Notes under the pieces: generated by a model
What the model was told of the DNA's origin: nothing
What the model saw: only the letters and a program-made list of their open reading frames with translations
Databases searched by the model: none
Made by a program: the position numbers and the translations under genes
From: an uncultured Gemmatimonadota bacterium
Lineage (GTDB): Bacteria > Blakebacterota > Blakebacteria > Blakebacterales > Blakebacteraceae
NCBI GenBank assembly: GCA_964576115.1
Contig: CAZNUA010000001.1
Coordinates: 62,001-126,000, forward strand
Reading direction: 5' to 3'
DNA length: 64,000 nucleotides
In this document: piece after piece, positions 5,382-40,897 of the stretch
Numbering within the stretch: the first letter of the stretch is position 1
Layout: each line of letters starts with the position of its first letter

Positions 5382-5759
5382 ATGCACGAACTGCCGATCA
5401 CCCAGAGCATTCTCGACCTGGCCCTGAAGCACGCCGCCGAGGCCGGCGGCGGGCATATCACCGATCTCTATCTGGTGGTGGGTCAGCTCTCGGGGGTCGT
5501 GGACGCCTCGGTGCAGTTCTACTGGGACATACTGACCGAGGACACCCCGGCCGAGGGGTCGCAGCTGCATTTCCGCCACACCGTCATGGAGATGGAGTGC
5601 CGCGAATGCGGGACGACCTTTATACCGGAAGAGCCGGTTTTCATCTGCACTGCCTGCGGGAGCCCTTCGGTCAAGGTCATCGCCGGTGACGAGTTCCGAC
5701 TCGAGGCGATCGACCTGAAACCGACCGACGGCTCGGGCGAGTTGGAGAGCGACCGATGA
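5382..5759 (+). CDS. hypA: Hydrogenase nickel metallochaperone HypA
   Basis: N-terminal MHE and two CxxC motifs. Confidence 0.97.
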   Translation: MHELPITQSILDLALKHAAEAGGGHITDLYLVVGQLSGVVDASVQFYWDILTEDTPAEGSQLHFRHTVMEMECRECGTTFIPEEPVFICTACGSPSVKVIAGDEFRLEAIDLKPTDGSGELESDR

Positions 5760-6412
5760 GCGAGCGGATACCTGTTCAGGAAAAGATCACCAGCCAGAAC
5801 GATATCATCGCGGCCGAAAACCGCGCCCGGATCGATGCCGCCGGCATTTTCTCGATCAACCTCATGGCTTCACCGGGGGCGGGCAAGACGTCGCTGATCG
5901 AGCAGACCGTACCGCGCCTGAACGACCGTTTCCGGATCGGCGTGATCGACGGCGACCTGGCCACCAGTTTCGACGCTGACCGGGCCGCCCGGGCCGGTGC
6001 GGTGAGTGTGCAGATCAACTCCGCTTCGTGCCACCTCGACGCCCCGATGGTCAGCCAGGGCCTCGACCGGCTCGATCTCGAAGCCCTCGATTTCCTGATC
6101 GTCGAGAACGTCGGCAATCTGGTCTGCCCGGCGGGCTGGCAGCTCGGCACGCACGCCAGCGCCCTGGTAGCCTCGATCCCCGAGGGGGACGACAAGCCCT
6201 TCAAGTACCCGGGGATGTACCGCGGAGTGGATGTGCTGGTCATCAACAAGATCGATCTCATCCCCTACCTCGCCTTCGACATGGACCGCTTCCGACAGGG
6301 AGTCGAAGCCCTGAACGAGGGGGTGGCCACCTTCCCGCTCTCCTGCACCACCGGCGAGGGGATCGAACCCTGGCTGGAGTGGGTGATGAACCGGATCGCC
6401 GGCCGGAGCTGA
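5756..6412 (+). CDS. hypB: Hydrogenase nickel incorporation GTPase HypB
   Basis: SPGAGKT, CHLDA, ENVGNLVCP, EGDDKP and NKID motifs. Confidence 0.97.
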   Translation: MSERIPVQEKITSQNDIIAAENRARIDAAGIFSINLMASPGAGKTSLIEQTVPRLNDRFRIGVIDGDLATSFDADRAARAGAVSVQINSASCHLDAPMVSQGLDRLDLEALDFLIVENVGNLVCPAGWQLGTHASALVASIPEGDDKPFKYPGMYRGVDVLVINKIDLIPYLAFDMDRFRQGVEALNEGVATFPLSCTTGEGIEPWLEWVMNRIAGRS

Positions 6413-6426
6413 ACCGGGAAGGCCCT

Positions 6427-8790
6427 GTGGACGGCCGTCGTATTCACATCACCGGGATCGTGCAGGGGGTCGGTTTCCGCCCCTACGTGCACCTGCTGGC
6501 CGAACGGCTCGGTCTGACGGGGTGGATCCGCAACTCTTCGTCGGGGGTCGAGATCGAGATCGAAGGTCCACCTGCGGCCCTGACCGCTTTCGAACAGGAC
6601 CTGCGCGGCGGCGGCCCGCCGCGGGCGCATATCGAGCAGATGACGGTCGAGAGCGCCGGCCCGTGGGGGCACGAGGGTTTCGAGATCGTCGAGTCACGGG
6701 CCGAGGCGGGGGAGTACCTGCCCGTCTCGCCCGACATCGGGATCTGCGCCGACTGCCGGCGCGAAATGAGCGACCCGGACGACCGGCGCTTCCGCTACCC
6801 CTTCATCAACTGCACCAACTGCGGCCCCCGCTTCACCATCATCCGCGACATTCCCTACGACCGGCCGCAAACCACCATGGCCGGATTCGCACTGTGCCCC
6901 GACTGTGCGGCCGAGTACGGCGAACCGCGCGACCGTCGCTACCACGCCCAGCCGGTGGCCTGCCCGGTCTGCGGGCCACAGGTCCGGCTCGAACGGGGAG
7001 GTACCGGCGAGGGAGACGTCGGAGAACGGCTGGCCGAACGCGAGACGGCTATCGCTCGAACGCGGGCCCTGCTCGCTGCGGGAGGGATCGCGGCCGTCAA
7101 GGGTCTGGGGGGCTTTCACCTGGCCTGCGACGCCACCTCGGCAGAGGCGGTGGCCGAACTGCGGCGGCGCAAGCAGCGCGACGACAAACCCTTCGCCCTG
7201 ATGGCCGCCGATCTGGCTACGATCGAGAAATATGTCGAGGTCAGCGCCGAGGACCGGGCTCTGCTCGAAAGTCCCGAGAATCCGATCGTGCTCATGCCGC
7301 GACGCCCGGAAGAGCAGGCGGGGGTCGACACAGGGACCGACTCCCCTCCGCTGGCCCCCGACGTAGCTCCCGGACTGAACCGGCTGGGGTTCATGCTTCC
7401 CTACACCCCCCTGCACCACCTCCTGCTCGAACCCGAACCGGGCTACCCGCCGGTGCTGGTCATGACCAGCGGGAACCTGAGCGACGAACCGATCGCTTAC
7501 GACGACGAGGACGCGCGCTCGCGGCTGGCCGATTATGCCGACGCCTTCCTGATGCACGACCGCCCGATCCACATGCGCTGCGACGACTCGGTTGTGGCCG
7601 ATTTCCGGGGCGGCCCCTGTTTTTTCCGCCGCTCCCGGGGGTATGCCCCCTTCCCCATCCTGCTGCCCGTCGCCACCCCACACCTGCTGGCTACCGGAGG
7701 GGAGTACAAAAACACCTTCTGCTGCGTGCGCGACGAGCGCGCCTTCGTGAGCCACTTCATCGGCGAGATGGCTTCCCTGGAAGCCAACCGCTCCTTCGGC
7801 CGGGCGGTGGCCCACTACGAGAAACTGTTCCGCATCGAGCCCGAACTCATCGTCCACGACGCCCACCCCGACTATCAGGCCACCCGGTACGCCGAATGGC
7901 GGGCGCAGGACCAGGGGTTGAAGACCCTCTCCGTCCAGCATCATCACGCCCACATCGCCTCGGTCATGGCCGACAACGCCCTTGGGCTCGAACGGCGGGT
8001 CATCGGGGTCGCCTTCGACGGTACCGGCTACGGGACCGATACCGCCATCTGGGGGGGGGAGTTTCTCATCGCCGGCTACGACACCTTCGTGCGGGCCTTT
8101 CACCTCGTCTATACCCCCCTGCCCGGAGGCGATGCCGCCATCCTCAATCCCTGCCGGGTAGCCCTGGGCTGGCTGCGTCAGGCCGGGCTCGAGTGGTCGG
8201 AGGATTTCGAGCCGGTCCGCAACACCGATGAGGAGGAACGGAACGTGCTGGCGGCGATGTTCGAAAACAACATCAACACTCTGCCCACCTCGAGCATGGG
8301 GCGGCTCTTCGACGCCGCCGCGTCCCTGGCCGGAGTACGCCAGAGGATCGCGTACGAGGCCCAGGCGGCGTGCGAGTTCGAAGCCCTGGCCGATAGGGAT
8401 GCCGAAGGCGCGTACCGTTTCGCGATTCATTCCGGTTCGACGCCCACGGCCCGTTTCGGGCTCATCGATCCGACCGGGGCAATCGCCGAACTGGCGGCCG
8501 ACGCCCGGGCAGGCACCGGGCCCGGCACGATGGCCATGCGCTTTCACCGCGGCATCGCCGCCATGGTGGTCGAGGTCTGCGGCATCCTGCGCTCCGAAAC
8601 CGGTCTGGAAGAGGTCGCCCTGAGCGGCGGTGTGTGGCAGAATATGTTGCTTCTCGAGCTCACAGTCGCCTTACTCGAAGAGAGGGGTTTCACCATCCGG
8701 GTCCACCGCCGGGTGCCGGCCAACGACGGGGGCCTCTCGCTCGGACAGGCTGCGGCCGCGGCGGCTCTGCTGGCCGCCCGCACGGGATGA
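6427..8790 (+). CDS. hypF: Carbamoyltransferase HypF
   Basis: GIVQGVGFRP acylphosphatase domain, zinc fingers, QHHHAH, DGTGYG and NDGGLSLGQ. Start set at GTG 6427, just after the hypB stop. Confidence 0.96.
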   Translation: MDGRRIHITGIVQGVGFRPYVHLLAERLGLTGWIRNSSSGVEIEIEGPPAALTAFEQDLRGGGPPRAHIEQMTVESAGPWGHEGFEIVESRAEAGEYLPVSPDIGICADCRREMSDPDDRRFRYPFINCTNCGPRFTIIRDIPYDRPQTTMAGFALCPDCAAEYGEPRDRRYHAQPVACPVCGPQVRLERGGTGEGDVGERLAERETAIARTRALLAAGGIAAVKGLGGFHLACDATSAEAVAELRRRKQRDDKPFALMAADLATIEKYVEVSAEDRALLESPENPIVLMPRRPEEQAGVDTGTDSPPLAPDVAPGLNRLGFMLPYTPLHHLLLEPEPGYPPVLVMTSGNLSDEPIAYDDEDARSRLADYADAFLMHDRPIHMRCDDSVVADFRGGPCFFRRSRGYAPFPILLPVATPHLLATGGEYKNTFCCVRDERAFVSHFIGEMASLEANRSFGRAVAHYEKLFRIEPELIVHDAHPDYQATRYAEWRAQDQGLKTLSVQHHHAHIASVMADNALGLERRVIGVAFDGTGYGTDTAIWGGEFLIAGYDTFVRAFHLVYTPLPGGDAAILNPCRVALGWLRQAGLEWSEDFEPVRNTDEEERNVLAAMFENNINTLPTSSMGRLFDAAASLAGVRQRIAYEAQAACEFEALADRDAEGAYRFAIHSGSTPTARFGLIDPTGAIAELAADARAGTGPGTMAMRFHRGIAAMVVEVCGILRSETGLEEVALSGGVWQNMLLLELTVALLEERGFTIRVHRRVPANDGGLSLGQAAAAAALLAARTG

Positions 8791-8820
8791 GATGACCGGC
8801 AGGCAGGAAGGGTAACGACG

Positions 8821-9084
8821 ATGTGTCTGGGGATACCGGGGAAGATCGTTGAGACCTGGGAGAAAGACGGTCTCAAGATGGGACGGGTGGATTTCGGGGG
8901 AGTGACCCGGGAGGTCTGCCTGGCATACGTACCCGAGGCCGAGGTGGACGACTATGCCATCATTCATGTCGGTTTCGCCATCAACCTGCTCGACGAGGAG
9001 GAGGCCCGCTCCACTCTGGAGATGCTCCACGAACTGGGTGAGGTGGAGAGCGAACTGGGCCTCGAATCGGCTTCTTCCCCATGA
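8821..9084 (+). CDS. hypC: Hydrogenase chaperone HypC
   Basis: MCLGIPG and HVGFA motifs. Confidence 0.97.
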
Positions 9085-10166
9085 AATATCTCGACGAGTA
9101 CCGGGACGGCGATCTGGTACGCCGGGTTCTGGCCGAGATCGAGGTCGCGGTGACCCGTCCCTGGACGCTAATGGAGATCTGCGGCGGTCAGACCCACTCG
9201 ATCGTGCGCAGCGGACTCGATCGCCTGCTACCCGACGAGATCACCCTGGTCCACGGCCCCGGCTGTCCGGTCTGCATCACACCGCTGGAAAAGATCGACC
9301 GGGCCCTGGCGATCGCCTGCCGCAAGGATGTGATTTTCACCAGTTACGGCGACATGCTGCGCGTGCCCGGCTCCCGTTCCGATCTGTTCAGCGTGCGCGC
9401 GGCCGGAGGTGACGTGCGGGTGGTCTACTCCCCTCTCGACGCGCTCACCATCGCACGAGACAACCCGGATAAAGAGGTGGTCTTCTTCGCCATCGGGTTC
9501 GAGACTACCGCTCCCCCCAACGCCATGGCCGTGCTGCAGGCCGACCGCCTGGGTCTGGAGAACTTCTCGGTCATCGTTTCCCATGCCGCCGTGCCCCCGG
9601 CCATACGGGCCATTCTTTCCTGGCCCGAAAATCTGGTGCAGGGCTTCCTGGCCGCCGGGCATGTCTGCGCCGTCATGGGCTACTGGGAGTACGAACCGCT
9701 GGCCGCGGAATTCGGCATCCCCATCGTCGTGACCGGTTTCGAACCGCTCGACCTGGTCCGGGGGATCGCCGCCGCCGTCCACCAGCTCGAGGCAGGCCGC
9801 ACCGAAGTGGAGAACGCGTACGGCCGGGCCGTGAGCCGCGAAGGGAACCGCTCGGCTCAGGACCTGATCGCCCGGGTCTTCGAACCGTGCGACCGCACCT
9901 GGCGGGGGATTGGCGCCATCGCGCAGAGCGGCTTGACTCTGCGCTCCGAATTGGCCCGTTTCGATGCCGAAACGCGCTTCGACGTGGGCGAGATCGAGAC
10001 CGCCGAATCGGATATCTGCATCGCCGGCGAGATCCTGCAGGGCCGCAAGAAACCGGTCGACTGCCCCGCCTTCGGGACCGAATGCACCCCCGAGAACCCC
10101 CTGGGCGCCACCATGGTCTCCTCCGAAGGAGCCTGCGCCGCTTACTACAAGTACGGCCGGGAGTGA
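9081..10166 (+). CDS. hypD: Hydrogenase formation protein HypD
   Basis: [18 protein letters not shown] and MVSSEGAC motifs. Confidence 0.97.
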
Positions 10167-10176
10167 GGGCGCGCCG

Positions 10177-11319
10177 GTGAGCCGATCACACCACAGGAAA
10201 CCAGCCGAGACCGGATCCGGCGGCGGCGAGAACCACGCCTCGATCGACGAGACACACACCGGCGGTCCCGAGCTCAGCTGCCCGATGCCGCTTTCGCACC
10301 GCGAGGGGATCGTCCTGGGACACGGCAGCGGGGGCAAGCTGACCGCCGAACTGATCGAACGCATCTTTTACCCCGCCCTGGAAAACCCCCTGCTGCTGCG
10401 CGGCGATGACGCCGCCGTGGCCGAGCTGCCAGCCGAACTGACCGGCGGCGGCCGCCTGGCCCTCTCGACCGACGCCCATATCGTGCGCCCCCTTGTCTTT
10501 CCCGGGGGCGACATCGGCCGCCTGGCCGTCTGCGGCACGGTCAACGACCTGGCCATGGTCGGCGCCCGTCCGCTGTGGCTGACCGCCAGCTTCGTACTGG
10601 AAGAGGGACTCGAGACCGAGGTGCTCCAGCAGATCGTGGCCTCGATGCAGACCGCAGCCGCCGAAGCGGGCATTACGGTCGTAGCGGGAGACACCAAGGT
10701 GGCCGAGAAAGGGCTGGCCGACGGCTTGTACATCTCCACCACCGGGATCGGGGTGGTGCCGGCCGGACGGGAGACCGGCGGCGCCGGGGCCCGGCCGGGA
10801 GACGCCGTGCTCGTCTCCGGCACCCTGGGCGATCACGGCATCGCCGTGCTGGCCGCCCGGGGCGAGCTGGCCTTCGAAACCGCCATCGTGTCGGATGTGG
10901 CCCCGCTCAACGGCCTGGTCGAAGCGCTCTATGAGACCGGCGCAGAGGTGCACACCCTGCGCGATCCCACCCGCGGCGGAGCGGCCGCGGCCCTGAACGA
11001 GATCGCCCGGCAGAGCGGTGTGGCGATCGTCCTGGAAGAGGGTTCGCTGCCCATCCGCCCGGCCGTGGCCGGGGCCTGCGAGATGCTCGGCTTCGACCCC
11101 CTGCACGTGGCCAACGAGGGCAAGCTGATCGCGATCGTCCCGGCTTCGGACGCCGAGCGGATCCTCGACGCCATGCGGGCCCATCCCCATGGAACCGAAG
11201 CCCGCCTCATCGGCCGGGTCGAGGCCGAACCGGCGGCCCGGGTTCTGCTCCAGACCGGCATCGGCGGCACCCGCATCGTGGACATGCCCACCGGCGAGCT
11301 GCTGCCCCGGATCTGCTGA
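10177..11319 (+). CDS. hypE: Hydrogenase maturation protein HypE
   Basis: HGSGG, GTVNDL, GDTKV, RDPTRGG and C-terminal LPRIC. Start uncertain (GTG 10177 or a later ATG). Confidence 0.95.
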   Translation: MSRSHHRKPAETGSGGGENHASIDETHTGGPELSCPMPLSHREGIVLGHGSGGKLTAELIERIFYPALENPLLLRGDDAAVAELPAELTGGGRLALSTDAHIVRPLVFPGGDIGRLAVCGTVNDLAMVGARPLWLTASFVLEEGLETEVLQQIVASMQTAAAEAGITVVAGDTKVAEKGLADGLYISTTGIGVVPAGRETGGAGARPGDAVLVSGTLGDHGIAVLAARGELAFETAIVSDVAPLNGLVEALYETGAEVHTLRDPTRGGAAAALNEIARQSGVAIVLEEGSLPIRPAVAGACEMLGFDPLHVANEGKLIAIVPASDAERILDAMRAHPHGTEARLIGRVEAEPAARVLLQTGIGGTRIVDMPTGELLPRIC

Positions 11320-15315: not shown

Positions 15316-16287
15316 CTATCGGGAGCAAATGCGCCCGAGCACCTGCGAGAGAACTTCCTCGACCGGATCGGAGGTCCACATCACGAAGAAGTGGATCGCC
15401 GGCACGCCCCGGGCCATCAGTGCCTCGACCTGGGCCGCCGCCCACTCGATCCCGATCTGCTGCACCTCGGCCTGTGAGGACGCCCTCTCGAGACGGTTCG
15501 AGAGTTCGACGGGAATGGTGGTATTGAACCGCCCCGGCAGGGTCTCGAGCTGGCGCCGGTCGTGGATGACCTTGAGCCCGGGCACGATCGGCACCGTAAT
15601 GCCCGCTGAACGGCAGGCTGCCTCGAACCGGAAGAAGGCTTCGGTATCGAAACACATCTGGGTCACGATGTAATCGGCCCCGGCCTCGACCTTCTCAAGC
15701 AGATGACAGATATCGGTCTCGAGGTTGGGCGCCTCGGGGTGACGTTCGGGATAGCCCGCCACACCGATGCAGAAATCGGTCGGGGTGGGATAGAGAACAT
15801 CCTCGACATAACGGCCGCGGTTCATGTCGCGGATCTGCCGGACCAGATCGACGGCGTGACGCGGACGGCCGTCGGCCGCCGTACCGTTCGTCCGACGCGG
15901 TTCCCCCCGCACGGCCAGGATGTTCCTGATCCCGAAGTAGTCCAGAGCGAAGAGGAAATCCTCGGTCTCGGTCGGGGTGAAACCGCCGGCGACGACATGC
16001 GGCACGGCGTCGATGCCGTAGCGGTCCTGGATCAACAGGGCGATCCCTTCGGTGCCGGGCCGCTTGCGTACGATCCGGCGCTGCAGCCCTTCCGGGGTCT
16101 CCTCGTACAGCACCTCAGCGGCGTGGCTGGTGACGTCGATGAAGGGCGGGTTCCAGGCCGCCAGCCGTTCGATGAGGGCGGTGAGTTCGGTGAAACTCCC
16201 CCCCCGCTTCGGCTGGACGATCTCGAAGCTGATCAGGGTCCGCCGGTCCGCAGCCGCCGAAGCCAGGTGCTCACCGACCGTCTTCAT
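15316..16287 (-). CDS. metF: 5,10-methylenetetrahydrofolate reductase
   Basis: SFEI, FIDVTSH, RKRPGT, VPHV, LAVRGE, IGVAGYPERHPEAP and ADYIVTQ motifs. Confidence 0.93.
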   Translation of the reverse strand: MKTVGEHLASAAADRRTLISFEIVQPKRGGSFTELTALIERLAAWNPPFIDVTSHAAEVLYEETPEGLQRRIVRKRPGTEGIALLIQDRYGIDAVPHVVAGGFTPTETEDFLFALDYFGIRNILAVRGEPRRTNGTAADGRPRHAVDLVRQIRDMNRGRYVEDVLYPTPTDFCIGVAGYPERHPEAPNLETDICHLLEKVEAGADYIVTQMCFDTEAFFRFEAACRSAGITVPIVPGLKVIHDRRQLETLPGRFNTTIPVELSNRLERASSQAEVQQIGIEWAAAQVEALMARGVPAIHFFVMWTSDPVEEVLSQVLGRICSR

Positions 16288-17129
16288 CGGTACAGCTCCA
16301 GCAGCAGGGAGAGTCGTTCGAAGCCCTCGGCGTCAAGGATCGCCCGCAGAGCCGTCAGGACGGGATCGTCCTCGGGCAGGGTCCGGTACGCCCGGGCGGG
16401 ATCGCCGATGATGGTGTCCAGTCCGCGGTCCGCGGCCAGGCTCAGGAAGGCGTTCTGCAGGGGCAGGCGCACCGCGGAGGGCAGGTGGTGAGTCAGGTTC
16501 GAGATCCCGACCAGGCGGTGGGTGCCGGCCAGGACCGGGTTGCCGCCGATTTCTTCGAGAACATCGAGGACGACGTTGAGTCGACCTTCGGCATCGCCCG
16601 CCACCGGCGGCAGGCCGGGATCGAAGTAGAGTTCTGCGGGTTCGAAGCCGTTCTCCCGGGCCTGTTCGAACAGAACCGACGCGGTCTGCAGCATCTGTGC
16701 GGTCGTCTCGTTGAGACGCACCCGGCCGCTCTCCGAGCGTTCCGACAGGAGCAGGACCGCGCCGAAGACCGCTTCGCGGCGCCGGGGCAGGATCGCCGGT
16801 GCCCGGGCCGAGGTCACGGAATTGAGCAGGGGGGGCGGGCCGGTGCCGTTCCCGGTCAGCAGTTCGAGGCCGAGCAGAAGTCTGGCACTGTCGTCGGAAT
16901 CGACACTCAGCGGCACCTCGACCGCTCCCCGGACGGCGCCGATCGCGTCGATCAGCACGTCGTCGGGCAGGGAGCCGACGTTGATATCCACGGCCCGGGC
17001 GCCGGCCCGGACCTGTTCGGCGGCCAGGCGGGCCACCTCGTTCCACTGCCCCCTTTCGAGCAGTTCTCCAATCCCCGGTACCGAAGCGTTGATCCGCTCC
17101 CCGATGATCGTCAGGTCTTCAACACGCAT
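16284..17129 (-). CDS. Stand-alone pterin-binding methyltransferase domain (MetH folate domain / AcsE-like)
   Basis: IIGERINAS, GARAVDIN, PLSVDS, LLNSV, YFDP and VGISN motifs; RBS GGGGAG before ATG 17129; 4-nt overlap with metF. Confidence 0.85.
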   Translation of the reverse strand: MRVEDLTIIGERINASVPGIGELLERGQWNEVARLAAEQVRAGARAVDINVGSLPDDVLIDAIGAVRGAVEVPLSVDSDDSARLLLGLELLTGNGTGPPPLLNSVTSARAPAILPRRREAVFGAVLLLSERSESGRVRLNETTAQMLQTASVLFEQARENGFEPAELYFDPGLPPVAGDAEGRLNVVLDVLEEIGGNPVLAGTHRLVGISNLTHHLPSAVRLPLQNAFLSLAADRGLDTIIGDPARAYRTLPEDDPVLTALRAILDAEGFERLSLLLELYR

Positions 17130-17192
17130 GGTGGTGACATCTCCCCGTTCTGGCGGGCCCGGAGCCCGGGCATCCTCTGTTCGGTACAACGG

Positions 17193-32315: not shown

Positions 32316-32344
32316 TTGACGTCCTTCTTCGAGCGTGGTAGACA
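32316..32344 (+). promoter_or_regulatory. Putative sigma70 promoter of the hydrogenase operon
   Basis: TTGACG-N17-TAGACA with an extended TG. Confidence 0.45.
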
Positions 32345-32551
32345 GATGCGAACCCCGACCGTACGCGGGCATGGGAGGGGTGAAAAAGCGAGCACCNNNN
32401 NNNNNNNNNNNNNNNNNNNNNNNNNNNNNNNNNNNNNNNNNNNNNNNNNNNNNNNNNNNNNNNNNNNNNNNNNNNNNNNNNNNNNNNNNNNNNNNNACAG
32501 ATGCGAACCCCGACCGTACGCGGGCATGGGAGGGGTGAAAAAGCGAGCACC
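32342..32551. other. Scaffold gap (100 N, 32397-32496) flanked by an identical 55-bp duplication
   Basis: 32342-32396 equals 32497-32551, as expected for an unmerged contig overlap. Confidence 0.9.
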
Positions 32552-32575: not shown

Positions 32576-34384
32576 ATGAGTGAAGCAACGGGTTCCCCCG
32601 CTGCGGATGCTGTACGCATAGGCGTATTCATCTGTCACTGCGGCGGCAATATTTCAGATGTCGTAGATGTGGAGCGGGTCGCACAGGAGATCGGGACACT
32701 TCCCGATGTGGTTTTCTCGGTGACCGAACGGTTCACCTGCTCCGATCCCGGCCAGGCCCGGATCGAGGAGGCAATCAAGGAGCAGAATCTGAACCGGGTC
32801 ATCGTTGCGGCCTGTTCCCCCACCCTGCACGAGATGACTTTCAGACGCTGTGTCAATCGGGCCGGCTTGAATCCCTACCTCTTCGAGCACGTCAATATCC
32901 GGGAGCAGGTCTCCTGGGTCATCGAAGACCACGAGGCCGCCACCCGCAAGGCCACCCGCCTTCTCAGCGCCTCGGTGGGACGCATCAGGCATCTGGAGCC
33001 GCTGGAGAAGAGGAACATCCCGATCCACAAGGCGGCCCTGGTCATCGGCGGCGGCCTGGCCGGATGCAAAGCCGCCCTCGACCTGGCCCGGCGGGGTGTG
33101 GATGTCTTCCTGATCGAGAAGAGCGACCGGCTGGGGGGCCGCTTCCTCGAGCTCTACGAGGTCTTCCCCACCGGCGAGAAGGCAGCCGACATCATCGGCC
33201 CCCTCGTCACACAGGTCCAGGAACATCCCCGCATCACGGTCCATACCGAAGCCGAACTCAGAGACACGACCGGCAGCGTGGGCGACTTCCACACCACCGT
33301 GGCCGTCAACGGCTCCGAAGTCGAGATCCACTCGGGGGTGATCATCCTCGCCGTCGGCCTCGATCTCTACGAGCCCCGGGCGGGCGAATACGGGGCGGGA
33401 ACCTCTCCGGCGGTCATCAGCCTGCTCGAGCTGCAGAGCATGCTCGATCCCGAGGGCCCGACCGGCGGCCGTCTCGAGGTCGAGGGGCGCCCGGTCCGCA
33501 ACGTGGCCTTCCTGCACTGTGTCGGCAGCCGGCAGTGGGCCGACGTACACGAAGCGGGCGAAGACGGCAAGGTCAACGACTACTGCAGCCGCTACTGCTG
33601 TACCGCCATCATGCATTCGGCGGTGGAGATCAAGAAGCGCTGGCCCGAGGTCAACGTCTTCGACTTCTTCGAGGACATCAGGACCTACGGACGGGGACAT
33701 GAGGAGTACTATACCGAGGCGGGCGAGCGCGGGGTTCTCTTCCTGCGCTTCGATCCTCACCATCCGCCCGTGGTCGTCCCCGATCCGAAGGGGGAATCTC
33801 CCCTGACGGTGACCTGCCGCGACCGTTGGACGCTCGACGAAGAAATCGAAGTGCCTGCCGACATGGTCGTCCTGGCGACCGGTTTTGTGCCCACCGACAT
33901 GTCCACCCTGATCGACCTGTATCGCTGTTCGCGCGGTGCCGACCGTTTCCTGCTCGAAGCCCACCCGAAACTGCGGCCGGTCGAGCTGGCCAGCTTCGGT
34001 CTTTTCCTGGCCGGCTCGGCCCAGGGCCCGATGGACGGCACCGAGGCCTCGGCTTCGGCCTCGGCTGCAGCCTCGAAGGCCGCCGCTCTGGTAGCCCGCG
34101 GATTCATCGAGCTGGATCCTTTCATCGCCAAGGTGAACGAGGATCTCTGCACGGGGTGCGAGACCTGTCTGAACATCTGTCCCTTCGACGCCATCACCAA
34201 GGACGAGGAAAAGGAAATCGCAACGATCAGCGAAGCACTCTGCACCGGCTGTGGAACGTGCGCTGCAACCTGTCCGAGCAGCGCCATCCAGCAGCTCGGT
34301 TTCAACGATGCCGAGGTGATGTCCGAGGTTCTGGCTCTGCTCGGTGTCCTCCACACCGAGCAAGAACCGGTCACCACCGGCTGA
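32576..34384 (+). CDS. hdrA: HdrA-family flavoprotein (QmoB-like: N-terminal domain, FAD domain, C-terminal 2[4Fe-4S])
   Basis: IGVFICHCGGNI, AACSP, NIREQ, IGGGLAG, HCVGSR, YCSRYCC and two C-terminal CxxCxxCxxxCP. Confidence 0.93.
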   Translation: MSEATGSPAADAVRIGVFICHCGGNISDVVDVERVAQEIGTLPDVVFSVTERFTCSDPGQARIEEAIKEQNLNRVIVAACSPTLHEMTFRRCVNRAGLNPYLFEHVNIREQVSWVIEDHEAATRKATRLLSASVGRIRHLEPLEKRNIPIHKAALVIGGGLAGCKAALDLARRGVDVFLIEKSDRLGGRFLELYEVFPTGEKAADIIGPLVTQVQEHPRITVHTEAELRDTTGSVGDFHTTVAVNGSEVEIHSGVIILAVGLDLYEPRAGEYGAGTSPAVISLLELQSMLDPEGPTGGRLEVEGRPVRNVAFLHCVGSRQWADVHEAGEDGKVNDYCSRYCCTAIMHSAVEIKKRWPEVNVFDFFEDIRTYGRGHEEYYTEAGERGVLFLRFDPHHPPVVVPDPKGESPLTVTCRDRWTLDEEIEVPADMVVLATGFVPTDMSTLIDLYRCSRGADRFLLEAHPKLRPVELASFGLFLAGSAQGPMDGTEASASASAAASKAAALVARGFIELDPFIAKVNEDLCTGCETCLNICPFDAITKDEEKEIATISEALCTGCGTCAATCPSSAIQQLGFNDAEVMSEVLALLGVLHTEQEPVTTG

Positions 34385-34396
34385 CGGAGGAGAGGA

Positions 34397-34903
34397 ATGA
34401 GCGAAGAGGTCATCACACAGGATGTGCAGACGGTACCGGAGAACTGGGAACCGAAGATCGTCGGATTCCTCTGCTACTGGTGCTCGTACTCCGGAGCCGA
34501 CGGCGCCGGCACAGCCCGGATGAAGTACGCCCCCAACGTGGACATCATCAAGGTGATGTGCAGCGGGCGGATCGATCCCGAGCTGATCACCACGGCTTTC
34601 GCCAACGGTGCTGACGGCGTCATGGTCGCGGGGTGCCATATCGGCGACTGCCACTATATGACGGGCAATCACAAGACCATGGCCCGGATGCCCCTGCTCA
34701 AGCGGATCCTGGACGAACTGGGTATAGAGGCCGACCGGTTCCGCCACGAGTGGATCAGCGCCGCCGAAGGGGCCAAGTTCGCCGCGACCGTCTCCGACCT
34801 GACCGAGAAGGTTCGCGCCCTCGGCCCGCTGAACTGGCCCGAGCTCATGCATGAACGGGGAGTCGGCCACGGCCACGACCTCAAGCCCTGGGGTGAAGAG
34901 TGA
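34397..34903 (+). CDS. mvhD: Methyl-viologen-reducing hydrogenase delta subunit ([2Fe-2S])
   Basis: FLCYWCSY, VMCSGRID, GCHIGDCHY and WISAAEG motifs. Confidence 0.96.
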   Translation: MSEEVITQDVQTVPENWEPKIVGFLCYWCSYSGADGAGTARMKYAPNVDIIKVMCSGRIDPELITTAFANGADGVMVAGCHIGDCHYMTGNHKTMARMPLLKRILDELGIEADRFRHEWISAAEGAKFAATVSDLTEKVRALGPLNWPELMHERGVGHGHDLKPWGEE

Positions 34904-35889
34904 TGAGTGAAAACGACACCGGCACGACACAGCAGAAGCTCAAGGTCGGGATGTACTGGGCGGCCAGCTGCGGCGGCTGCGACATCTCCCTGCTCGAAAT
35001 CGGTCCTCACATCCTCGAGCTGATCGAGATCGCAGACATCGCCTTCTGGCCCTGCGCCGCCGATTTCAAATATCAGGATGTGGCGAACTACCCCGACGAG
35101 TACATCGACGTCTGTTTCTACAACGGCGCCATCCGGACCAGTGAACAGGAACAGATCGCCCGGCTGCTCAGGCAGAAGAGCAAGTCGCTGATCGCGTACG
35201 GGGAGTGCGCGGTCGACGGCGGGATCCCGGCCCTGGCCAACCTGAAGGACGTGCCGGGGATCTTCGATGCGGCCTACCACACCAATCCGTCGATCGACAA
35301 TCCCGAGGGCACCGAGCCGCTCCCGATCTCCGAATGCGAGCAGGGCGAGCTGGAAATTCCCGAGTTCTACGATCAGGTCCTGCGCCTGCAGGATGTCGTT
35401 CCGGTCGACTACGTCATCCCGGGCTGCCCGCCGCAGGCCGAACGGGTCTGGGAGGCGATCGTGGCCGTGACCGGCGGTGCGGTGCCGCTGAAAAATACCA
35501 ACGTCCGGGTGGCGGTCTTCGACAAGTCGGTCTGCGACGAGTGCCCGCGCGAGAAACGGCATGAGAAGATCACCGGCTTCAAGCGCCCGCACGAGGTCCG
35601 TCCCGAACCCGACTGGTGCCTGCTCGAGCAGGGTCTGATCTGCATGGGACCGGCCACCCGCAGCGGTTGCGGCGCGCTCTGCATCAAGGGGGGCCTGCCC
35701 TGCCGGGGCTGTTACGGTCCCTCGGGCGAGGTCGAGGACCAGGGTACGGCCATGGTCAGCGCCATCGCCTCGATCCTGGATGCCACCGACGAGGAGACCG
35801 CCCGGGAAATGATCGCCCAGATCGTCGATCCGGCCGGCACGTTCTACCGGTTCAGTATGGCTTCGAGCCACATGAAAGCACGCAAGTAG
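34903..35889 (+). CDS. mvhG: Group 3c [NiFe]-hydrogenase small subunit
   Basis: ASCGGC, GECA, PGCPP, VCDECP, CLLEQGLICMGPATRSGC and CRGCYG motifs. Confidence 0.95.
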   Translation: MSENDTGTTQQKLKVGMYWAASCGGCDISLLEIGPHILELIEIADIAFWPCAADFKYQDVANYPDEYIDVCFYNGAIRTSEQEQIARLLRQKSKSLIAYGECAVDGGIPALANLKDVPGIFDAAYHTNPSIDNPEGTEPLPISECEQGELEIPEFYDQVLRLQDVVPVDYVIPGCPPQAERVWEAIVAVTGGAVPLKNTNVRVAVFDKSVCDECPREKRHEKITGFKRPHEVRPEPDWCLLEQGLICMGPATRSGCGALCIKGGLPCRGCYGPSGEVEDQGTAMVSAIASILDATDEETAREMIAQIVDPAGTFYRFSMASSHMKARK

Positions 35890-35902
35890 AGGTGGGTGTG
35901 AG

Positions 35903-37417
35903 ATGACGACTCCACATGTGAAGACCAAAGAGGGTTACCGGCGGATCAGCATCGATCCGATCACCCGGCTTGAAGGACACGGGAAGATCGACATCTTCCT
36001 CGACTCAGCGGGCGAGGTGGCCGATGTCTACTTCCAGGTGCCCGAACTGCGCGGCTTCGAGAAGTTCTGCGAAGGCCGGCCGGTGGAGGAACTGCCCCGG
36101 ATCACGACCCGTATCTGCGGCGTCTGTCCCGAGGCTCACCTCATGGCCTCGGCCAAGGCGTGCGACGCCGTCTATGACGCCGAATTGCCCCTGACGGCGA
36201 AGATGCTGCGCGAACTGCAGTACAACATCTTCTACGTCACCGACCACACCACCCACTTTTATGCTCTGGGGGCACCCGATTTCGTGATGGGCCCGGATTC
36301 CGATCCGGCCCTGCGCAACCTGATCGGGGTGATCGGCAAGGTCGGACTGGAGATCGGCAGCAAGGTCATCCAGTGCCGGCAGTGGGGTCATGAAGCCGCG
36401 TCGATTTTCGGCGGCAAGCCGGTCAACCCGATCAACGCCATTCCGGGGGGCATGTCGAAGCCGATTTCGGCCGAGGAGCGCGACCGCCTGGATGAGATCT
36501 GCTCCTTCATGGTCGAATTCGGCGAATTCACCATCCAGTTGCTCAAGGATGTGGTCCTCGCCAACGAGGCCTATGTCGACCTCATCCTCAACGGGCCTTA
36601 CTACCACGAGACCTACTCGATGGGCCTGGTGGACGAGAACAACCGGGTCAATTTCTACGAGGGTCAGGTGCGGGTGGTCGACCCCGAGGGCAAGGAGTTC
36701 TGCAAGTACGCCCCGGCCGACTACGCCGAGCACGTGGCCGAGCGGGTCGAACCGTGGAGCTACCTGAAGTTCCCCTACCTGAAAAAGGTGGGCTGGAAGG
36801 GCTTCGTGGATGGCATGGACTCGGGGGTCTACCGGGCTACGCCACAGTCGCGCCTGAACGCCTCGAACGGCATGAACAGCCCCAAGGCGCAGGCAGCGTA
36901 CGAGGAGTACTTCGAGACCCTGACCGGCGACCGGAACGGTTCGAAGCCGGTCCATCACACCCTGGCCATCCACTGGGCGCGGGTAGTGGAGCTGATGAAC
37001 GCCGCCGAGCGCTCCCTGGAGCTGATCCGGCATCCCGAGATCACCGACCCCGAGAACTACCGGGTCGTCTGCGACAAGACCCCCTCGGAGGGGGTCGGGA
37101 TCGTCGAAGCCCCGCGCGGCACGCTCACCCACCACTACGTGACCGATTCGAACGGCATCGTGCAGAAAGCCAACCTGATCGTGGGCACCACCAACAACAA
37201 CGCCCCGATCTGCATGTCGGTCAAGAAAGCCGCCCAGGGATTGATCACGAAAGGGACCGAGATCACCGAGGGCGTGCTGAACATGGTCGAGATGGCCTTC
37301 CGGGCTTACGACCCCTGTTACGGCTGCGCCACCCACTCCCTGCCCGGCCAGATGCCGATGATCGTGCGGCTGCGCGATGTCGACGGCACCGTTCTGGAAG
37401 AAGCCCGGCGGGACTGA
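35903..37417 (+). CDS. mvhA: Group 3c [NiFe]-hydrogenase large subunit
   Basis: TRLEGH, L1 motif RICGVC, L2 motif DPCYGCATH with a cleavable C-terminal extension. Confidence 0.96.
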   Translation: MTTPHVKTKEGYRRISIDPITRLEGHGKIDIFLDSAGEVADVYFQVPELRGFEKFCEGRPVEELPRITTRICGVCPEAHLMASAKACDAVYDAELPLTAKMLRELQYNIFYVTDHTTHFYALGAPDFVMGPDSDPALRNLIGVIGKVGLEIGSKVIQCRQWGHEAASIFGGKPVNPINAIPGGMSKPISAEERDRLDEICSFMVEFGEFTIQLLKDVVLANEAYVDLILNGPYYHETYSMGLVDENNRVNFYEGQVRVVDPEGKEFCKYAPADYAEHVAERVEPWSYLKFPYLKKVGWKGFVDGMDSGVYRATPQSRLNASNGMNSPKAQAAYEEYFETLTGDRNGSKPVHHTLAIHWARVVELMNAAERSLELIRHPEITDPENYRVVCDKTPSEGVGIVEAPRGTLTHHYVTDSNGIVQKANLIVGTTNNNAPICMSVKKAAQGLITKGTEITEGVLNMVEMAFRAYDPCYGCATHSLPGQMPMIVRLRDVDGTVLEEARRD

Positions 37418-37471
37418 GGGGAAACGACCGGAGAAAGAGCCTGACGCACCGTCAGAGATGAGGGAAAGAGC

Positions 37472-38770
37472 ATGGCAGAGTCAGACAAGCAGTACGACGC
37501 AGTGGTGATTGGCGGGGGCATCGCCGGCATGCAGGCCTCCCTGGACCTGGGCGATCAGGGCTACCGCGTGCTGCTGGTGGAGAAGGAGCCTTCCATCGGC
37601 GGAGTCATGGTGGGTCTGAACAAGGTTTTTCCCACCCTGGACTGTTCGAGCTGCATCTGTACCCCCCGGATGGCCGAGACCGCCCACCACGAGAACATCA
37701 CCCTGCAGGCCTACACCGAGGTGAAGAAGGTCTCCAAGAACGGGACCGGCTTCCATGTGGAACTGATCGAGAAGCCGCGCTATGTAGACGCCGAAGCCTG
37801 CATTGGCTGCGGCCAGTGCGAACTGGCCTGCCCGGTGGACGTGCCGCACGAGTTCGACTACGGGCTAGGGGCGCGACGGGCGATTTACATCCCCCACGCC
37901 AACGCCATCCCGCAGGTCGCCACCCTTGATGTGGAGCACTGCACCTTCTGCGGCAAGTGCGCCACGGTCTGTCCCGTCGAATGCGTTGATTATCTGCAGC
38001 AGCCCGAAGAGGTCACGATCGAGGCCGGGGCCGTTATCGTCACCACCGGGCTCGAACTGATCCCGATGGAAGACAAGCAGGAGTGGGGCGGCGGGAAGCT
38101 GATCAACGTTCTCAATCCCCTGGCGGTGGAGCGGATTCAGTCCTCCGACGGTCCCTACGGGCACATCATGCGACCCTCCGACGGCAAGGTGGCCACTTCG
38201 ATCGCCTATGTGCAGTGCGCCGGCAGCCGCGATCAGTCGATGGGCTACCCCTACTGCTCGCGGGTCTGCTGCATGTACGCTCTGAAACAGGCCATCCTGA
38301 CCAAGGGCTACGGCGATGTGGAGATCACCATCTACCACATGGACATCCGGGCTTTCGGCAAGGGCTTCGAGCAGTTCTACCGGCGGGCGATGGACGACGG
38401 CATCAGGATCGTGAACGGCAAGGTGGCGCGGATCACAGAGGATGCCGATCACAACCCGGTGCTGCGGGTCGAGCTGCTCGACGAGGGCGGTCAGGTCGTC
38501 GAGCGCACCTACGACATGGTCGTTCTCTCGCAGGGTCTGCGGGCCGGCTGGCACCCGGAGGGTGTGCTCGGCGCCCGCGAGGACGAGGACGGCTTCTTCG
38601 AGATCCCCAACCTCAAACTCTACCCGACAGTGAGCTCGATCGAGGGCGTCTTCGTGGCCGGCGTGGCCGCCGGTCCGAAGGATATCCCCGACGCCATTGT
38701 CGAAGCAGGATCGGCCGCCATGGAAGCGGCCAACTATCTGGAGGCGACCCGCACGGTGGCCGCCACCTGA
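37472..38770 (+). CDS. hdrA: Second HdrA-family flavoprotein (QmoA-sized, inserted ferredoxin, no N- or C-terminal extra domains)
   Basis: IGGGIAG, KVFPTLDCSSC, two inserted CxxCxxCxxxCP, QCAGSRD, YCSRVCCMYALK and GPKDI. Confidence 0.92.
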   Translation: MAESDKQYDAVVIGGGIAGMQASLDLGDQGYRVLLVEKEPSIGGVMVGLNKVFPTLDCSSCICTPRMAETAHHENITLQAYTEVKKVSKNGTGFHVELIEKPRYVDAEACIGCGQCELACPVDVPHEFDYGLGARRAIYIPHANAIPQVATLDVEHCTFCGKCATVCPVECVDYLQQPEEVTIEAGAVIVTTGLELIPMEDKQEWGGGKLINVLNPLAVERIQSSDGPYGHIMRPSDGKVATSIAYVQCAGSRDQSMGYPYCSRVCCMYALKQAILTKGYGDVEITIYHMDIRAFGKGFEQFYRRAMDDGIRIVNGKVARITEDADHNPVLRVELLDEGGQVVERTYDMVVLSQGLRAGWHPEGVLGAREDEDGFFEIPNLKLYPTVSSIEGVFVAGVAAGPKDIPDAIVEAGSAAMEAANYLEATRTVAAT

Positions 38771-38797
38771 GACACGAACCCGGGCATGAGGTCGATC

Positions 38798-39082
38798 ATG
38801 GCTGAGAAAGAACAGACACCGATCCAGATTTTCCGCGAGCGACAGGGCGGGATAGCCCCCGAACTGAAGGAATACGTGAAGGAGCAGAACACCGCCCGCA
38901 AGGTCATCCGCAACGCCCTGGGCTCGGGTGCCAGAACGGTTCCGGAGATTGCGAGTGAAAGTGGACTGGATTCCAGCGCCGTAATGTGGCACGTTATGGC
39001 CATGAAGAGATACGGCGAGGTACTCGAAGCCGGACGCGAGGGCGACTACTACACGTACCAGCTGAAGGGAGATGGCCGATGA
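38798..39082 (+). CDS. Small winged-helix protein within the hydrogenase operon
   Basis: TVPEIASESGLDSSAVMWHV HTH followed by a beta wing; ATGA overlap with the next gene. Confidence 0.8.
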   Translation: MAEKEQTPIQIFRERQGGIAPELKEYVKEQNTARKVIRNALGSGARTVPEIASESGLDSSAVMWHVMAMKRYGEVLEAGREGDYYTYQLKGDGR

Positions 39083-40233
39083 GTTCCCGGGTCGACACAC
39101 AGGTGGTCAAGGATCTGGCCTCCTACGGCGGCGACACGGCCACCGAATGCTTCAACTGCGGCAACTGCACCGCAGTCTGCGGACTGACTGACAACGACGC
39201 CAGCTTCCCGCGTAAATTTATCCGTTACATCCAGCTCGGCCTCAAAGACAAGATGAAGAGTTCGATCGATCCCTGGATGTGTTACTACTGCGGCGAGTGC
39301 AGCGACACCTGCCCGCGGGATGCCGAGCCGGGCAAACTGATGATGGCCGCCCGCCGCTGGCTGACCGCGGCCTATGACTGGACCGGCATCAGCCGCCTCA
39401 TGTACCAGAAGGAATGGACCGAATTCCTCTTCCTGGGAATCGTGGCGGCGGTCGTGGTGGCCCTGTTCACCATCCCCGCCAACTTCGGGTTCAACCTGCT
39501 GGCCCAGCATCCTGAAGCGCGCGAAACGGTGATGCTCCATTCTTTCGCGCCCAAGGAGATCGTTCACGTCGGCGACCTCATCCTGGCCGGCCTGCTGTCT
39601 TTCTTCCTGCTCACCAATGCCGCCCGCATGGTCAGCTGGACCATGAAGGGCTCGGGGGCCGGGCTGGGTTCCTACGTGGCCGAGTTCAAGGAGATGGTCA
39701 TCCACGGCCTGACCCAGAAGCGGTGGTCCAAGTGTGAGACCAGCTCGGGCAAGCACTGGATCAGGCACATCTTCCTGGTGACCGGTTACGGCACCATGTT
39801 CCTGCTGGTCGTGGCCCTGTTGCCGATCTTCCAGATCGAGGACGCCAGCTTCCACTGGACCTCGCTCCTCGGCTATTACGGCACCCTGGTCCTGCTTGCC
39901 GTCTCCACCTGGCTGCTGATCGACCGGGCCCAGGGCAAGGACCAGATCCACAAGGATAGTCACCTTTCGGACTGGCTCTTCCCGATCCTGCTGCTGCTGA
40001 CTGCCCTTTCGGGGATCATGTTGCACCTGTTCCGGATCTTCGACCAGCCCATGCCGGCCTATGTCATGTACGTGGTGCACCTGGCCATCGCGGTGCCGAT
40101 GCTGGCCGTGGAGGTGCCCTTCGGGAAGTGGGCCCACCTGCTCTACCGGCCCACCGCCGCCTATCTCAGCGCGGTGCGGAAGCGCGCGGAGGCCACCGCC
40201 ACCCAGCCCGCTCTGCAGCCCGAAGCCGCCTGA
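39079..40233 (+). CDS. QmoC-like membrane protein (HdrC-type 2[4Fe-4S] plus cytochrome-b-like TM domain)
   Basis: CFNCGNCTAVC and PWMCYYCGECSDTCP, about 6 hydrophobic segments with His residues, YVVHL and KWAHLLYRP. Confidence 0.85.
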   Translation: MSSRVDTQVVKDLASYGGDTATECFNCGNCTAVCGLTDNDASFPRKFIRYIQLGLKDKMKSSIDPWMCYYCGECSDTCPRDAEPGKLMMAARRWLTAAYDWTGISRLMYQKEWTEFLFLGIVAAVVVALFTIPANFGFNLLAQHPEARETVMLHSFAPKEIVHVGDLILAGLLSFFLLTNAARMVSWTMKGSGAGLGSYVAEFKEMVIHGLTQKRWSKCETSSGKHWIRHIFLVTGYGTMFLLVVALLPIFQIEDASFHWTSLLGYYGTLVLLAVSTWLLIDRAQGKDQIHKDSHLSDWLFPILLLLTALSGIMLHLFRIFDQPMPAYVMYVVHLAIAVPMLAVEVPFGKWAHLLYRPTAAYLSAVRKRAEATATQPALQPEAA

Positions 40234-40263
40234 TTTCGGGCCTCGACAGTCTGTCACGCGAAC

Positions 40264-40297
40264 CGCCCGCCTTGCCTTCGGACAGGGCGGGCGTTTT
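40264..40297 (+). terminator. Intrinsic terminator after the qmoC-like gene
   Basis: CGCCCGCC...cUUCGg...GGCGGGCG followed by TTTT. Confidence 0.7.
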
Positions 40298-40411
40298 CCT
40301 GCCGGGATTTGGATTCGATCCGTTCCGGTCACAGCAGGCCGCAGGGAGAAGGGGCAGGGTTCGAGGGAAAGAACGTGATGAGCGGGAGAGCGATATGAGC
40401 GGAAAAAGGTC

Positions 40412-40897
40412 ATGAGCGGCAGACGGATCGCCGTCCTCGGTCTGGGCAATCCCATTCTCAAGGACGACGCCGTGGGGCTGAAAGTGATCGAAGAACTGGA
40501 CCGGATCCTGGCCGCCGAGCCCAGCCCCGGTGTCGAACTGCTCACCAGCCAGAGAGCGGGATTCGAAGTAATCGATCGGCTCTCGGGCTATGACGAGGTC
40601 ATTATCGTCGACGCCTTTCAGGCCCCCGACACCCGACCGGGCCGGATCAGGCAGGTCGAGATGAGCGAGATCGCCGGGAGCGCCCGCTTGATGTCGGTTC
40701 ACGAGATCGGGCTCGAGGCAGCTTTCGAACTCGCCCACACCCTCGACATCCCGATGCCCGATACGGTTTCGATCATCGGTATCGAAGCCGACGACGTGTA
40801 TGAGTTCGGGGAGGAAATGAGTCCCGAGGTCGCGGCGGCCGTCGGACCGGTCGTGGAGGACATCATCGCCCGCCTGAGGAGCCTAAATACCCCCTAA
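40412..40897 (+). CDS. Hydrogenase maturation protease
   Basis: LGLGNPILKDDAVG, IIVDA and SVHEIG motifs. Confidence 0.95.
   Translation: MSGRRIAVLGLGNPILKDDAVGLKVIEELDRILAAEPSPGVELLTSQRAGFEVIDRLSGYDEVIIVDAFQAPDTRPGRIRQVEMSEIAGSARLMSVHEIGLEAAFELAHTLDIPMPDTVSIIGIEADDVYEFGEEMSPEVAAAVGPVVEDIIARLRSLNTP

Follow-up and report, generated by a model that had tools for sequence, protein, structure and literature searches.

A cluster named 'Mvh-Qmo-Hdr' has been described in Ca. Methanoglobus nevadensis/M. hypatiae, comprising MvhAGD, two HdrA proteins and an HdrC-QmoC fusion, with no HdrB or AprAB in the portions of text available. In those portions (bioRxiv 10.1101/2022.12.01.518715; 10.1101/2023.09.08.556235), bifurcation of H2 electrons to menaquinone and ferredoxin was proposed for this cluster, and the cluster is described as highly expressed in Ca. 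M. hypatiae. A hydrogenase-Qmo confurcation was proposed in the available part of PMC3333476, whereas PMC7380581 has no bearing on the cluster. Type II QmoABC, made of HdrA-like QmoAB and QmoC, occurs in genomes with or without Apr/Dsr and has no assigned function in the accessible text of PMC10504309; its occurrence in genomes lacking Apr/Dsr is also noted in that of PMC8477390. Our literature search found no biochemical test of coupling from H2 to quinone plus ferredoxin. Here, we analyzed a related operon located in a 64,000-nucleotide stretch of DNA, hereafter the window, from an uncultured Gemmatimonadota bacterium (GenBank assembly GCA_964576115.1, contig CAZNUA010000001.1, positions 62,001 to 126,000). 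This operon carries mvhD, mvhG and mvhA, two hdrA genes, a gene encoding a winged-helix-like protein (wHTH) and a qmoC-like gene, whose product is hereafter named QmoC'. The operon is real and represents a bacterial version of a system that had been noted before but not characterised; the original prediction, made from these letters alone, had allowed that similar clusters might already appear in genome surveys. The headline idea is not new; what is new here is a bifurcating half-site split between the two HdrA proteins and a predicted structural role for wHTH. Labels G, C and L designate genomes, contigs and loci; the source genome is G000 (93.7% complete), and the window lies on contig C1.

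We consider it reasonably probable that the gene products form a single membrane-anchored MvhAGD-HdrA1-HdrA2-wHTH-QmoC' complex, which would oxidise H2 and bifurcate at the flavin adenine dinucleotide (FAD) of HdrA2 to menaquinone and ferredoxin. In such a complex, electrons taken from H2 by MvhAGD would reach the HdrA2 FAD and bifurcate there. The high-potential electron would pass through cluster HA4 and the QmoC' clusters to haem b and quinone, while the low-potential electron would leave through the shuttle cluster of the arm and the inserted ferredoxin domain of HdrA2 towards ferredoxin, which could be reoxidised by Rnf. In the model, wHTH would sit on this ferredoxin-exit domain, where it would serve either as a structural component or as an adaptor for docking. 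With published potentials, the reaction of 2 H2, menaquinone and 2 ferredoxins yields -59 kJ at standard H2, -15 kJ at E(H2) = -300 mV, and -5 kJ when E(H2) is -300 mV and ferredoxin is at -500 mV. The direction, uptake or confurcating H2 production, is something that we can only infer.

The eight co-oriented open reading frames (ORFs) lie on one strand in the predicted order, hdrA'-mvhD-mvhG-mvhA-hdrA''-wHTH-qmoC-like-protease (hdrA1 and hdrA2 hereafter; Table 1), with intergenic gaps of 12, -4, 13, 54, 15, -4 and 178 bp. The same eight-gene order recurs in L018, L021, L177, L179, L180 and L189, and the arrangement is therefore not due to chance. A promoter scan upstream of the operon gave nothing above chance. 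A 100-N scaffold gap (window 32397-32496) lies 80 bp upstream of hdrA1, and an identical 55 bp flanks it on either side (window 32342-32551), probably where two contig ends overlap; the operon's promoter region is uncertain.

Among solved structures, MvhAGD is nearest to the methanogen MvhAGD. The best match of MvhA is 5odc_F (373 bits), followed by 7t2r (355 bits) and Hox (304 bits), and its Ni-binding CxxC motifs RICGVC and DPCYGC are intact. MvhG scores 213 bits against MvhG 9sw2_E and 80 bits against the 7t2r small subunit. In MvhD, residues C29, H81 and D84 correspond to C16, H68 and D71 of M. marburgensis MvhD (a 13-residue offset to 9sw2_D), and every cluster ligand is kept, whereas the MvhD' of TusA-type modules lacks the canonical cysteine pattern. 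An MvhA-closest large subunit with intact Ni motifs, a full MvhG, and linked MvhD and HdrA point to a hydrogenase of group 3c (Mvh) type, a putative label that we draw from the PDB matches and the gene context.

The two HdrA proteins have complementary domain contents. Compared with methanogen HdrA, HdrA1 matches over the N-terminal, FAD and C-terminal domains and is missing the inserted ferredoxin domain, while the match of HdrA2 is confined to the FAD domain and this inserted ferredoxin domain, with no N- or C-terminal arm domains. According to the available text of PMC10734219, Lys409 of the methanogen protein adjoins N5 of the bifurcating FAD. In HdrA1, this position is occupied by His347 and that of Glu356 by Gln287, and the DCxxC pair is absent. 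Conservation was evaluated on 32-row alignments of HdrA1 and HdrA2 from loci with a free wHTH (L084, L086, L088, L123 and L124 were left out). K272 of HdrA2, equivalent to Lys409, and the pair C58 and C61 are present in 32/32 sequences and E220, equivalent to Glu356, in 31/32, and all eight cysteines of the inserted ferredoxin domain are invariant. In HdrA1, a Lys is found at the Lys409 position in 0/32 sequences and a Glu at the Glu356 position in 12/32. As described in the accessible parts of PMC12350162 and PMC13580544, an arm composed of MvhD together with one HdrA's N- and C-terminal domains serves the FAD', Cys pair, HA4' and HA5'/HA6' of the partner HdrA. HdrA1 would supply the arm and HdrA2 the partner set, so that one complete bifurcating path is retained. 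HdrA1 is therefore likely the arm donor carrying MvhD, and HdrA2 likely the bifurcating half. A role of the HdrA2 Cys pair as ligand of the partner's arm cluster was considered and dropped; the available text of PMC13580544 places this pair between MvhD and FAD'.

Hydropathy analysis of QmoC' predicted six transmembrane segments; their fold is of NarI/EtfD type. The AlphaFold2 model has a mean predicted local distance difference test score (pLDDT) of 89 and a predicted template modelling score (pTM) of 0.87. It matches the folds of HdrC (Z 12.1, root-mean-square deviation 2.3, 99 aligned residues), EtfD (10.4, 4.9, 219) and NarI (9.7, 5.4, 182); for a helical protein, such Z values are moderate. 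A Foldseek search of the model against the PDB yielded no hit at E <= 0.001, and a sequence search for a solved QmoC structure returned none, HdrC only. QmoC' scores 188 bits against NF038018, for which the cut-off is 300. H230 and H353 are present in 98/98 QmoC-family sequences and H334 in 94/98; all three are common to QmoC' and 10/10 type I QmoC proteins and are predicted from sequence to bind haem. By NarI numbering, H230 and H353 would presumably hold the proximal haem. Two further type I histidines, H213 and H69, are replaced by Gln and Tyr in QmoC'. QmoC has been described with two quinol-reducible haems in the available text of PMC3333476. For EtfD, a single bis-His haem b beside menaquinone suffices according to that of PMC13083937, an arrangement read as transfer without energetic coupling in the accessible part of a preprint (10.64898/2026.08.18.745454). 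Four Elusimicrobia homologues of QmoC' carry Asn in place of H334 (L049, L056, L065 and L066), and the corresponding genomes contain a MenA-like gene alone among the three quinone markers searched.

The small protein of the operon, wHTH, has no match among Pfam and NCBIfam profiles. The gene is present in 72 of 80 QmoC' loci, and in 65 of these 72 it ends at most 100 bp from the qmoC start. It is fused to the C-terminus of HdrA1 in 13 Bacteroidales loci and one fragment, a count that leaves out L053 and L095 (frames without an HdrA match) and L071 (a different fusion); these fusions probably stem from few events. In the TusA-type module of L071, wHTH forms the C-terminus of a GltD/Nfn-like FAD and Fe-S protein (8361-9995), the gene of which is placed between hdrA1 and qmoC. 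An HdrA cluster of the Atlas also aligns with wHTH. We modelled four chains together (the HdrA1 core, HdrA2, the QmoC' Fe-S domain and wHTH) in three runs with controls. wHTH scored 0.90, 0.89 and 0.90, the best control 0.00, with at least 97% contact agreement across runs and a partner pLDDT of 87. The score mark is reached by 116/157 solved and 2/215 mismatched pairs, rates that are only rough for a four-chain job with its own alignments.

HdrA2 accounts for all confident contacts of wHTH, through its inserted ferredoxin domain (104-175) and through residues 228-242. The wHTH residues involved include the conserved P53, W68, R75, Y76 and Y88, and the recognition helix, which is hydrophobic, is buried in the modelled interface. 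Conservation is modestly higher in the interface than in the rest of wHTH (0.52 vs 0.43), with 7 of the 13 most conserved positions in the interface. At the position of Y229 in HdrA2, 32/32 wHTH modules carry Tyr or Phe; six wHTH-less Bacteroidota HdrA2 proteins and the HdrA of contig C55 carry Thr. The PSDGK loop of HdrA2 is also found in methanogen HdrA and is thus not specific. wHTH is therefore predicted by the model to bind the inserted ferredoxin domain of HdrA2 via its hydrophobic recognition helix. The same domain docks MvhB in methanogen HdrA according to the available text of PMC13580544, and by analogy wHTH may act in docking or in clamping where the low-potential electron exits. 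Our literature search for a wHTH-HdrA binding role found none. To our knowledge, there is no solved complex of this kind, one having been looked for only through the matches of QmoC', HdrA1 and HdrA2 described above.

wHTH could instead be an ArsR-like transcription regulator of the operon, as its Atlas neighbours might suggest: they bear automatic ArsR names, and HTH_5/HTH_20 is found on 12-46% of members in some clusters. We regard this as rather unlikely. The gene lies mid-operon near qmoC, it is fused to HdrA1 in Bacteroidales loci and to the GltD-like flavoenzyme in L071, and the recognition helix is hydrophobic and buried in the modelled interface. No shared operator dyad was detected upstream of 32 TusA-type modules (best 5/32, shuffles giving 3-6), and a second module on contig C1 carries its own divergent LysR gene. 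wHTH is likely an enzyme subunit rather than a regulator.

To assess the distribution of the module, genomes were scanned for QmoC', which gave 141 candidate stretches, of which 99 were confirmed and 80 kept; gene counts are lower bounds because of contig ends. The 80 loci span many bacterial phyla and archaea. The closest, L017, has 87% QmoC identity, and the gene order of the operon is also conserved in L017, L018, L021 and L055. TusA or dsrE genes are present in 57 of the 80 loci, linked mvhA/G in 8 and hdrB in none (the mvhA/G genes of L062, which belong to a separate hydrogenase on the opposite strand, were not counted). Starting from MvhA, 80 metagenome loci comprised 4 with the full order, 3 with a partial order and 11 with hdrB, while 5 showed another arrangement, hdrA2-qmoC-hdrA1, without wHTH.

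Trees were quick LG+G4 reconstructions with Shimodaira-Hasegawa-like approximate likelihood ratio (SH-aLRT) support only, in which the type I outgroup did not fall on one side of a branch. The QmoC' clade is split from type I QmoC (branch 1.26, SH-aLRT 100) and interleaved with QmoC proteins of TusA modules. Both HdrAs are placed inside wHTH/TusA-module clades (SH-aLRT 98-99), away from QmoA/B as well as from the Bacteroidota Mvh type. The predicted Qmo-like module of two HdrAs and a membrane protein thus holds in the type II sense, although its subunits fall outside the canonical QmoA/B/C clades. Since TusA-linked modules surround the operon in the trees, an independent recruitment of the hydrogenase is probable, and the link to it probably arose more than once. 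A broader generalisation, which we hold only tentatively and think doubtful, is that HdrA1, HdrA2, wHTH and QmoC' form a widespread plug-in bifurcation core with one half-site. In it, wHTH would be repurposed as an exit-docking subunit recruiting or tethering partners, the inputs would be swapped (mostly TusA/DsrE, repeatedly Mvh), and in this genus a TusA module devoid of qmoC may share QmoC' as the single membrane anchor, whereby bifurcation linked to H2, a sulfur carrier and quinone would be built from exchangeable parts.

Such a module, L011, is encoded on the same contig (C1:190267-195327, minus strand) in the order tusA-mvhD'-hdrA2-hdrA1-wHTH-dsrE, without qmoC; past dsrE, the LysR gene lies on the opposite strand. 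Related Chloroflexota-type modules place qmoC between wHTH and dsrE, and the same qmoC-less wHTH-dsrE junction is found in G001 (L257). This second module may be soluble or share the QmoC' of the operon. In the same family, G004 and G002 (L128-L131, L162) each carry two canonical-type qmoABC sets, with aprA pieces beside one of them in G004; part of this family may perform adenosine 5'-phosphosulfate (APS) reduction or oxidation.

We then analyzed the genome for partners of the operon. The predicted absence of HdrB holds for the operon and contig C1, as no CCG domain was found in the eight operon proteins or elsewhere on this contig; it does not hold for the genome. The genome-wide search gave eight CCG matches in four proteins, namely two of HdrB type (C55 and C23), one HdrD-like (C23) and one EtfD/EMO-like membrane protein (C3, 634 amino acids). 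A co-expressed hdrB or aprAB partner elsewhere had been named as a reason to give up the reading; hdrB is present, but each copy comes with its own HdrA/HdrC, and aprA, sat and dsrA were found neither in the window, for which the original prediction had noted the lack of aprAB and sat, nor in the whole genome. The C55 cluster (C55:9470-14040, L008) consists of a thioredoxin reductase-like gene, hdrA, a glutaredoxin-like gene, hdrC and hdrB, and lacks both mvhD and a hydrogenase. In the C23 cluster (C23:33400-45400, L009), 2-oxoacid:ferredoxin oxidoreductase-like genes are followed by a tandem double-HdrA gene, mvhD, hdrD, hdrA-mvhD, hdrC and hdrB. In both HdrA genes of C23, the position of the second Cys in the DCxxC pair is occupied by an in-frame TGA; as a tRNA-Sec is encoded in the genome, these HdrAs are likely selenoproteins. 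The genome also encodes complex I (NuoH/NuoCD), Sdh/Frd, Rnf, a Hox-type hydrogenase and a UbiE/MenG homologue.

Several observations weigh against a bifurcating, quinone-linked complex. The asymmetry in Lys is not universal, since this residue is also retained by the HdrA1 of L123/L124 and of the Bacteroidota Mvh type. At the fourth NarI-type haem position, QmoC' has Met240 and 10/10 type I QmoC proteins have Leu, and one or two haems are thus both possible. The four-chain model scored the wHTH interface alone. Two HdrB-containing clusters exist elsewhere (C55 and C23), that of C55 lacking MvhD. Concerning the quinone, menD, menF and menC were not found in G000, nor were futalosine markers, which were present in 0/10 genomes of the order, and the two MenA-like genes are both under curated cut-offs. 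Concerning haem and electron acceptors, a search of this assembly gave no hemB, a gene that the same-genus genome G001 does carry, no AhbD match reached the cut-off, and bd oxidase, COX1 and NrfD were not found in this assembly, COX1 being present in G001.

As no de novo menaquinone pathway was found in the assembly, the quinone source is, we infer, probably salvage of 1,4-dihydroxy-2-naphthoate (DHNA). Among 27 genomes with the module, whose completeness is not established and which are not independent, 12 carry MqnA/D and 3 MenB; of the other 12, 10 have MenA or a MenA-like gene and two have none. The predicted bifurcation from H2 to ferredoxin and menaquinone agrees with all residue-level tests run; the idea is already published.

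Three other readings of the complex were weighed. In one, the same complex would run mainly in reverse, menaquinol and reduced ferredoxin confurcating to H2 during fermentation. The assembly fits this in that searches revealed neither a terminal oxidase nor a reductase of NrfD type, the C3 EtfD/EMO-like membrane CCG protein and complex I could feed quinol, and the reaction is near equilibrium at low H2 (-5 kJ, as calculated above for E(H2) -300 mV and ferredoxin at -500 mV). We nevertheless find it unlikely, since confurcation is strongly endergonic at moderate H2, the Hox-type hydrogenase of C25 can already dispose of NADH, and COX1 is present in the same-genus genome. It is still less probable that there is no single complex, with MvhAGD pairing with the HdrABC of C55 or C23 as an ordinary Mvh-Hdr while the HdrA pair and QmoC' make up a type II Qmo of their own, fed by a different donor. 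Against such a separation, the mvh genes are enclosed by the two hdrA genes, their order is conserved and the gaps measure 12-54 bp, HdrA1 retains the C-terminal arm domain, and the MvhD of the operon has every cluster ligand, the MvhD' of the TusA module not sharing the canonical cysteine pattern. It would account for the HdrB-type genes on C55 and C23 (C55 being without MvhD), for the 11/80 MvhA relatives that adjoin hdrB, and for the 57/80 QmoC' loci that have TusA/DsrE and, by gene maps, no linked hydrogenase.

We give equally little credence to a non-bifurcating H2:quinone oxidoreductase, or to a non-quinone partner of the membrane subunit in a quinone-less host. Either would be compatible with the lack of a detected de novo quinone pathway and hemB in the assembly, with the Asn found at H334 in four Elusimicrobia homologues, and with the modelled position of wHTH over one ferredoxin-exit cluster, where it might block exit. 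The bifurcation-linked Lys, the Cys pair and the eight ferredoxin-domain cysteines are, however, invariant in HdrA2, and a marker of de novo menaquinone synthesis occurs in 7/9 genomes that carry Mvh-type modules. The single bifurcating complex remains our preferred reading.

Table 1. Features of the operon and associated elements, with positions in the window.
Feature	Position	Strand	Characteristics
hdrA1 (602 aa)	32576..34384	+	N-terminal Fe-S, FAD/TrxR and C-terminal 2x[4Fe-4S] domains
mvhD, [2Fe-2S] subunit	34397..34903	+	Pfam/NCBIfam FlpD/MvhD
mvhG, hydrogenase small subunit	34900..35889	+	Pfam/NCBIfam, PDB matches
mvhA, [NiFe] large subunit	35903..37417	+	RICGVC and DPCYGC motifs, C-terminal extension
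hdrA2 (432 aa)	37472..38770	+	FAD/TrxR domain with inserted 2x[4Fe-4S] ferredoxin domain
wHTH, 98-aa winged-helix-like protein	38786..39082	+	Unmatched in Pfam and NCBIfam
qmoC-like (QmoC')	39079..40233	+	HdrC-type 2x[4Fe-4S] domain and six predicted transmembrane helices
Terminator-like hairpin, qmoC/protease interval	40264..40293	+	11 pairs, 9 G-C, T tail; consensus match only
HycI-family hydrogenase maturation protease	40412..40897	+	Pfam/NCBIfam
hypABFCDE maturation cluster	5382..11319	+	About 21 kb upstream; accessory, outside the operon

Other genes were observed in the surroundings and in the rest of the genome. An MTHFR-family gene overlaps a pterin-binding methyltransferase gene at window 15316-17189 (minus strand). 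The Hox-type NAD-linked [NiFe] hydrogenase operon, with its protease, is located at C25:29319-34465 (L012), and a HydABC/NuoEFG-like cluster adjoins a glutamate-synthase-like gene at C12:17405-22053. Two multihaem c-type candidates (C1:35886-37376 and C22:38781-40310, with 5 and 4 CxxCH motifs) are encoded in this assembly without detected hemB.

If the proposed complex exists, it would be a [NiFe] hydrogenase that conserves energy in that it divides the electrons of H2 between ferredoxin and the quinone pool. The analysis leads to residue-level predictions on K272 and C58/C61 of HdrA2, on H230/H353 of QmoC', and on W68/Y76/Y88 of wHTH facing Y229 and the PSDGK loop of HdrA2. wHTH is probably a mis-annotated 'ArsR regulator' that expression constructs would need.

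Compared with known systems, the operon has MvhA, MvhG, MvhD, the HdrA and HdrC domains, Lys409 and the Cys pair in common with MvhADG-HdrABC (PDB 5ODC, 8RVU, 9SW2). It differs in that the HdrA homodimer gives way to a heterodimer of complementary HdrAs, predicted to have one bifurcating site, in that a membrane domain fused to HdrC takes the place of HdrB, and in that MvhB is absent. Canonical type I QmoABC of sulfate reducers likewise combines a pair of HdrA paralogues with an MvhD domain and with an HdrC/membrane subunit in which H230, H334 and H353 occur; here, MvhD is a separate gene, AprAB is absent, and QmoC and QmoA/B form separate clades. EtfABCX/FixABCX, as presented in the available text of PMC10734219, provides a precedent for flavin bifurcation with menaquinone as the high-potential acceptor, and EtfD/EMO, in that of PMC13083937, a precedent for an HdrC-like domain joined to a NarI-fold membrane domain, but the donor modules of both are unrelated (NADH/ETF) and EtfD bears CCG domains. 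Compared with type II QmoABC, the present system is wired to a [NiFe] hydrogenase and carries wHTH; the main text of PMC10504309 contains 0 occurrences of 'mvh'. The QmoC of Ammonifex (L035) falls in the same clade as QmoC', the type II assignment being drawn from quick trees. The Ca. Methanoglobus cluster has the gene content given above, as found here. The host is bacterial and non-methanogenic in our case, and the available texts on the archaeal cluster mention neither a wHTH nor a split half-site. This likeness is one of gene content; since two other Mvh-Qmo lineages appear in the trees, convergence with Methanoglobus is possible.

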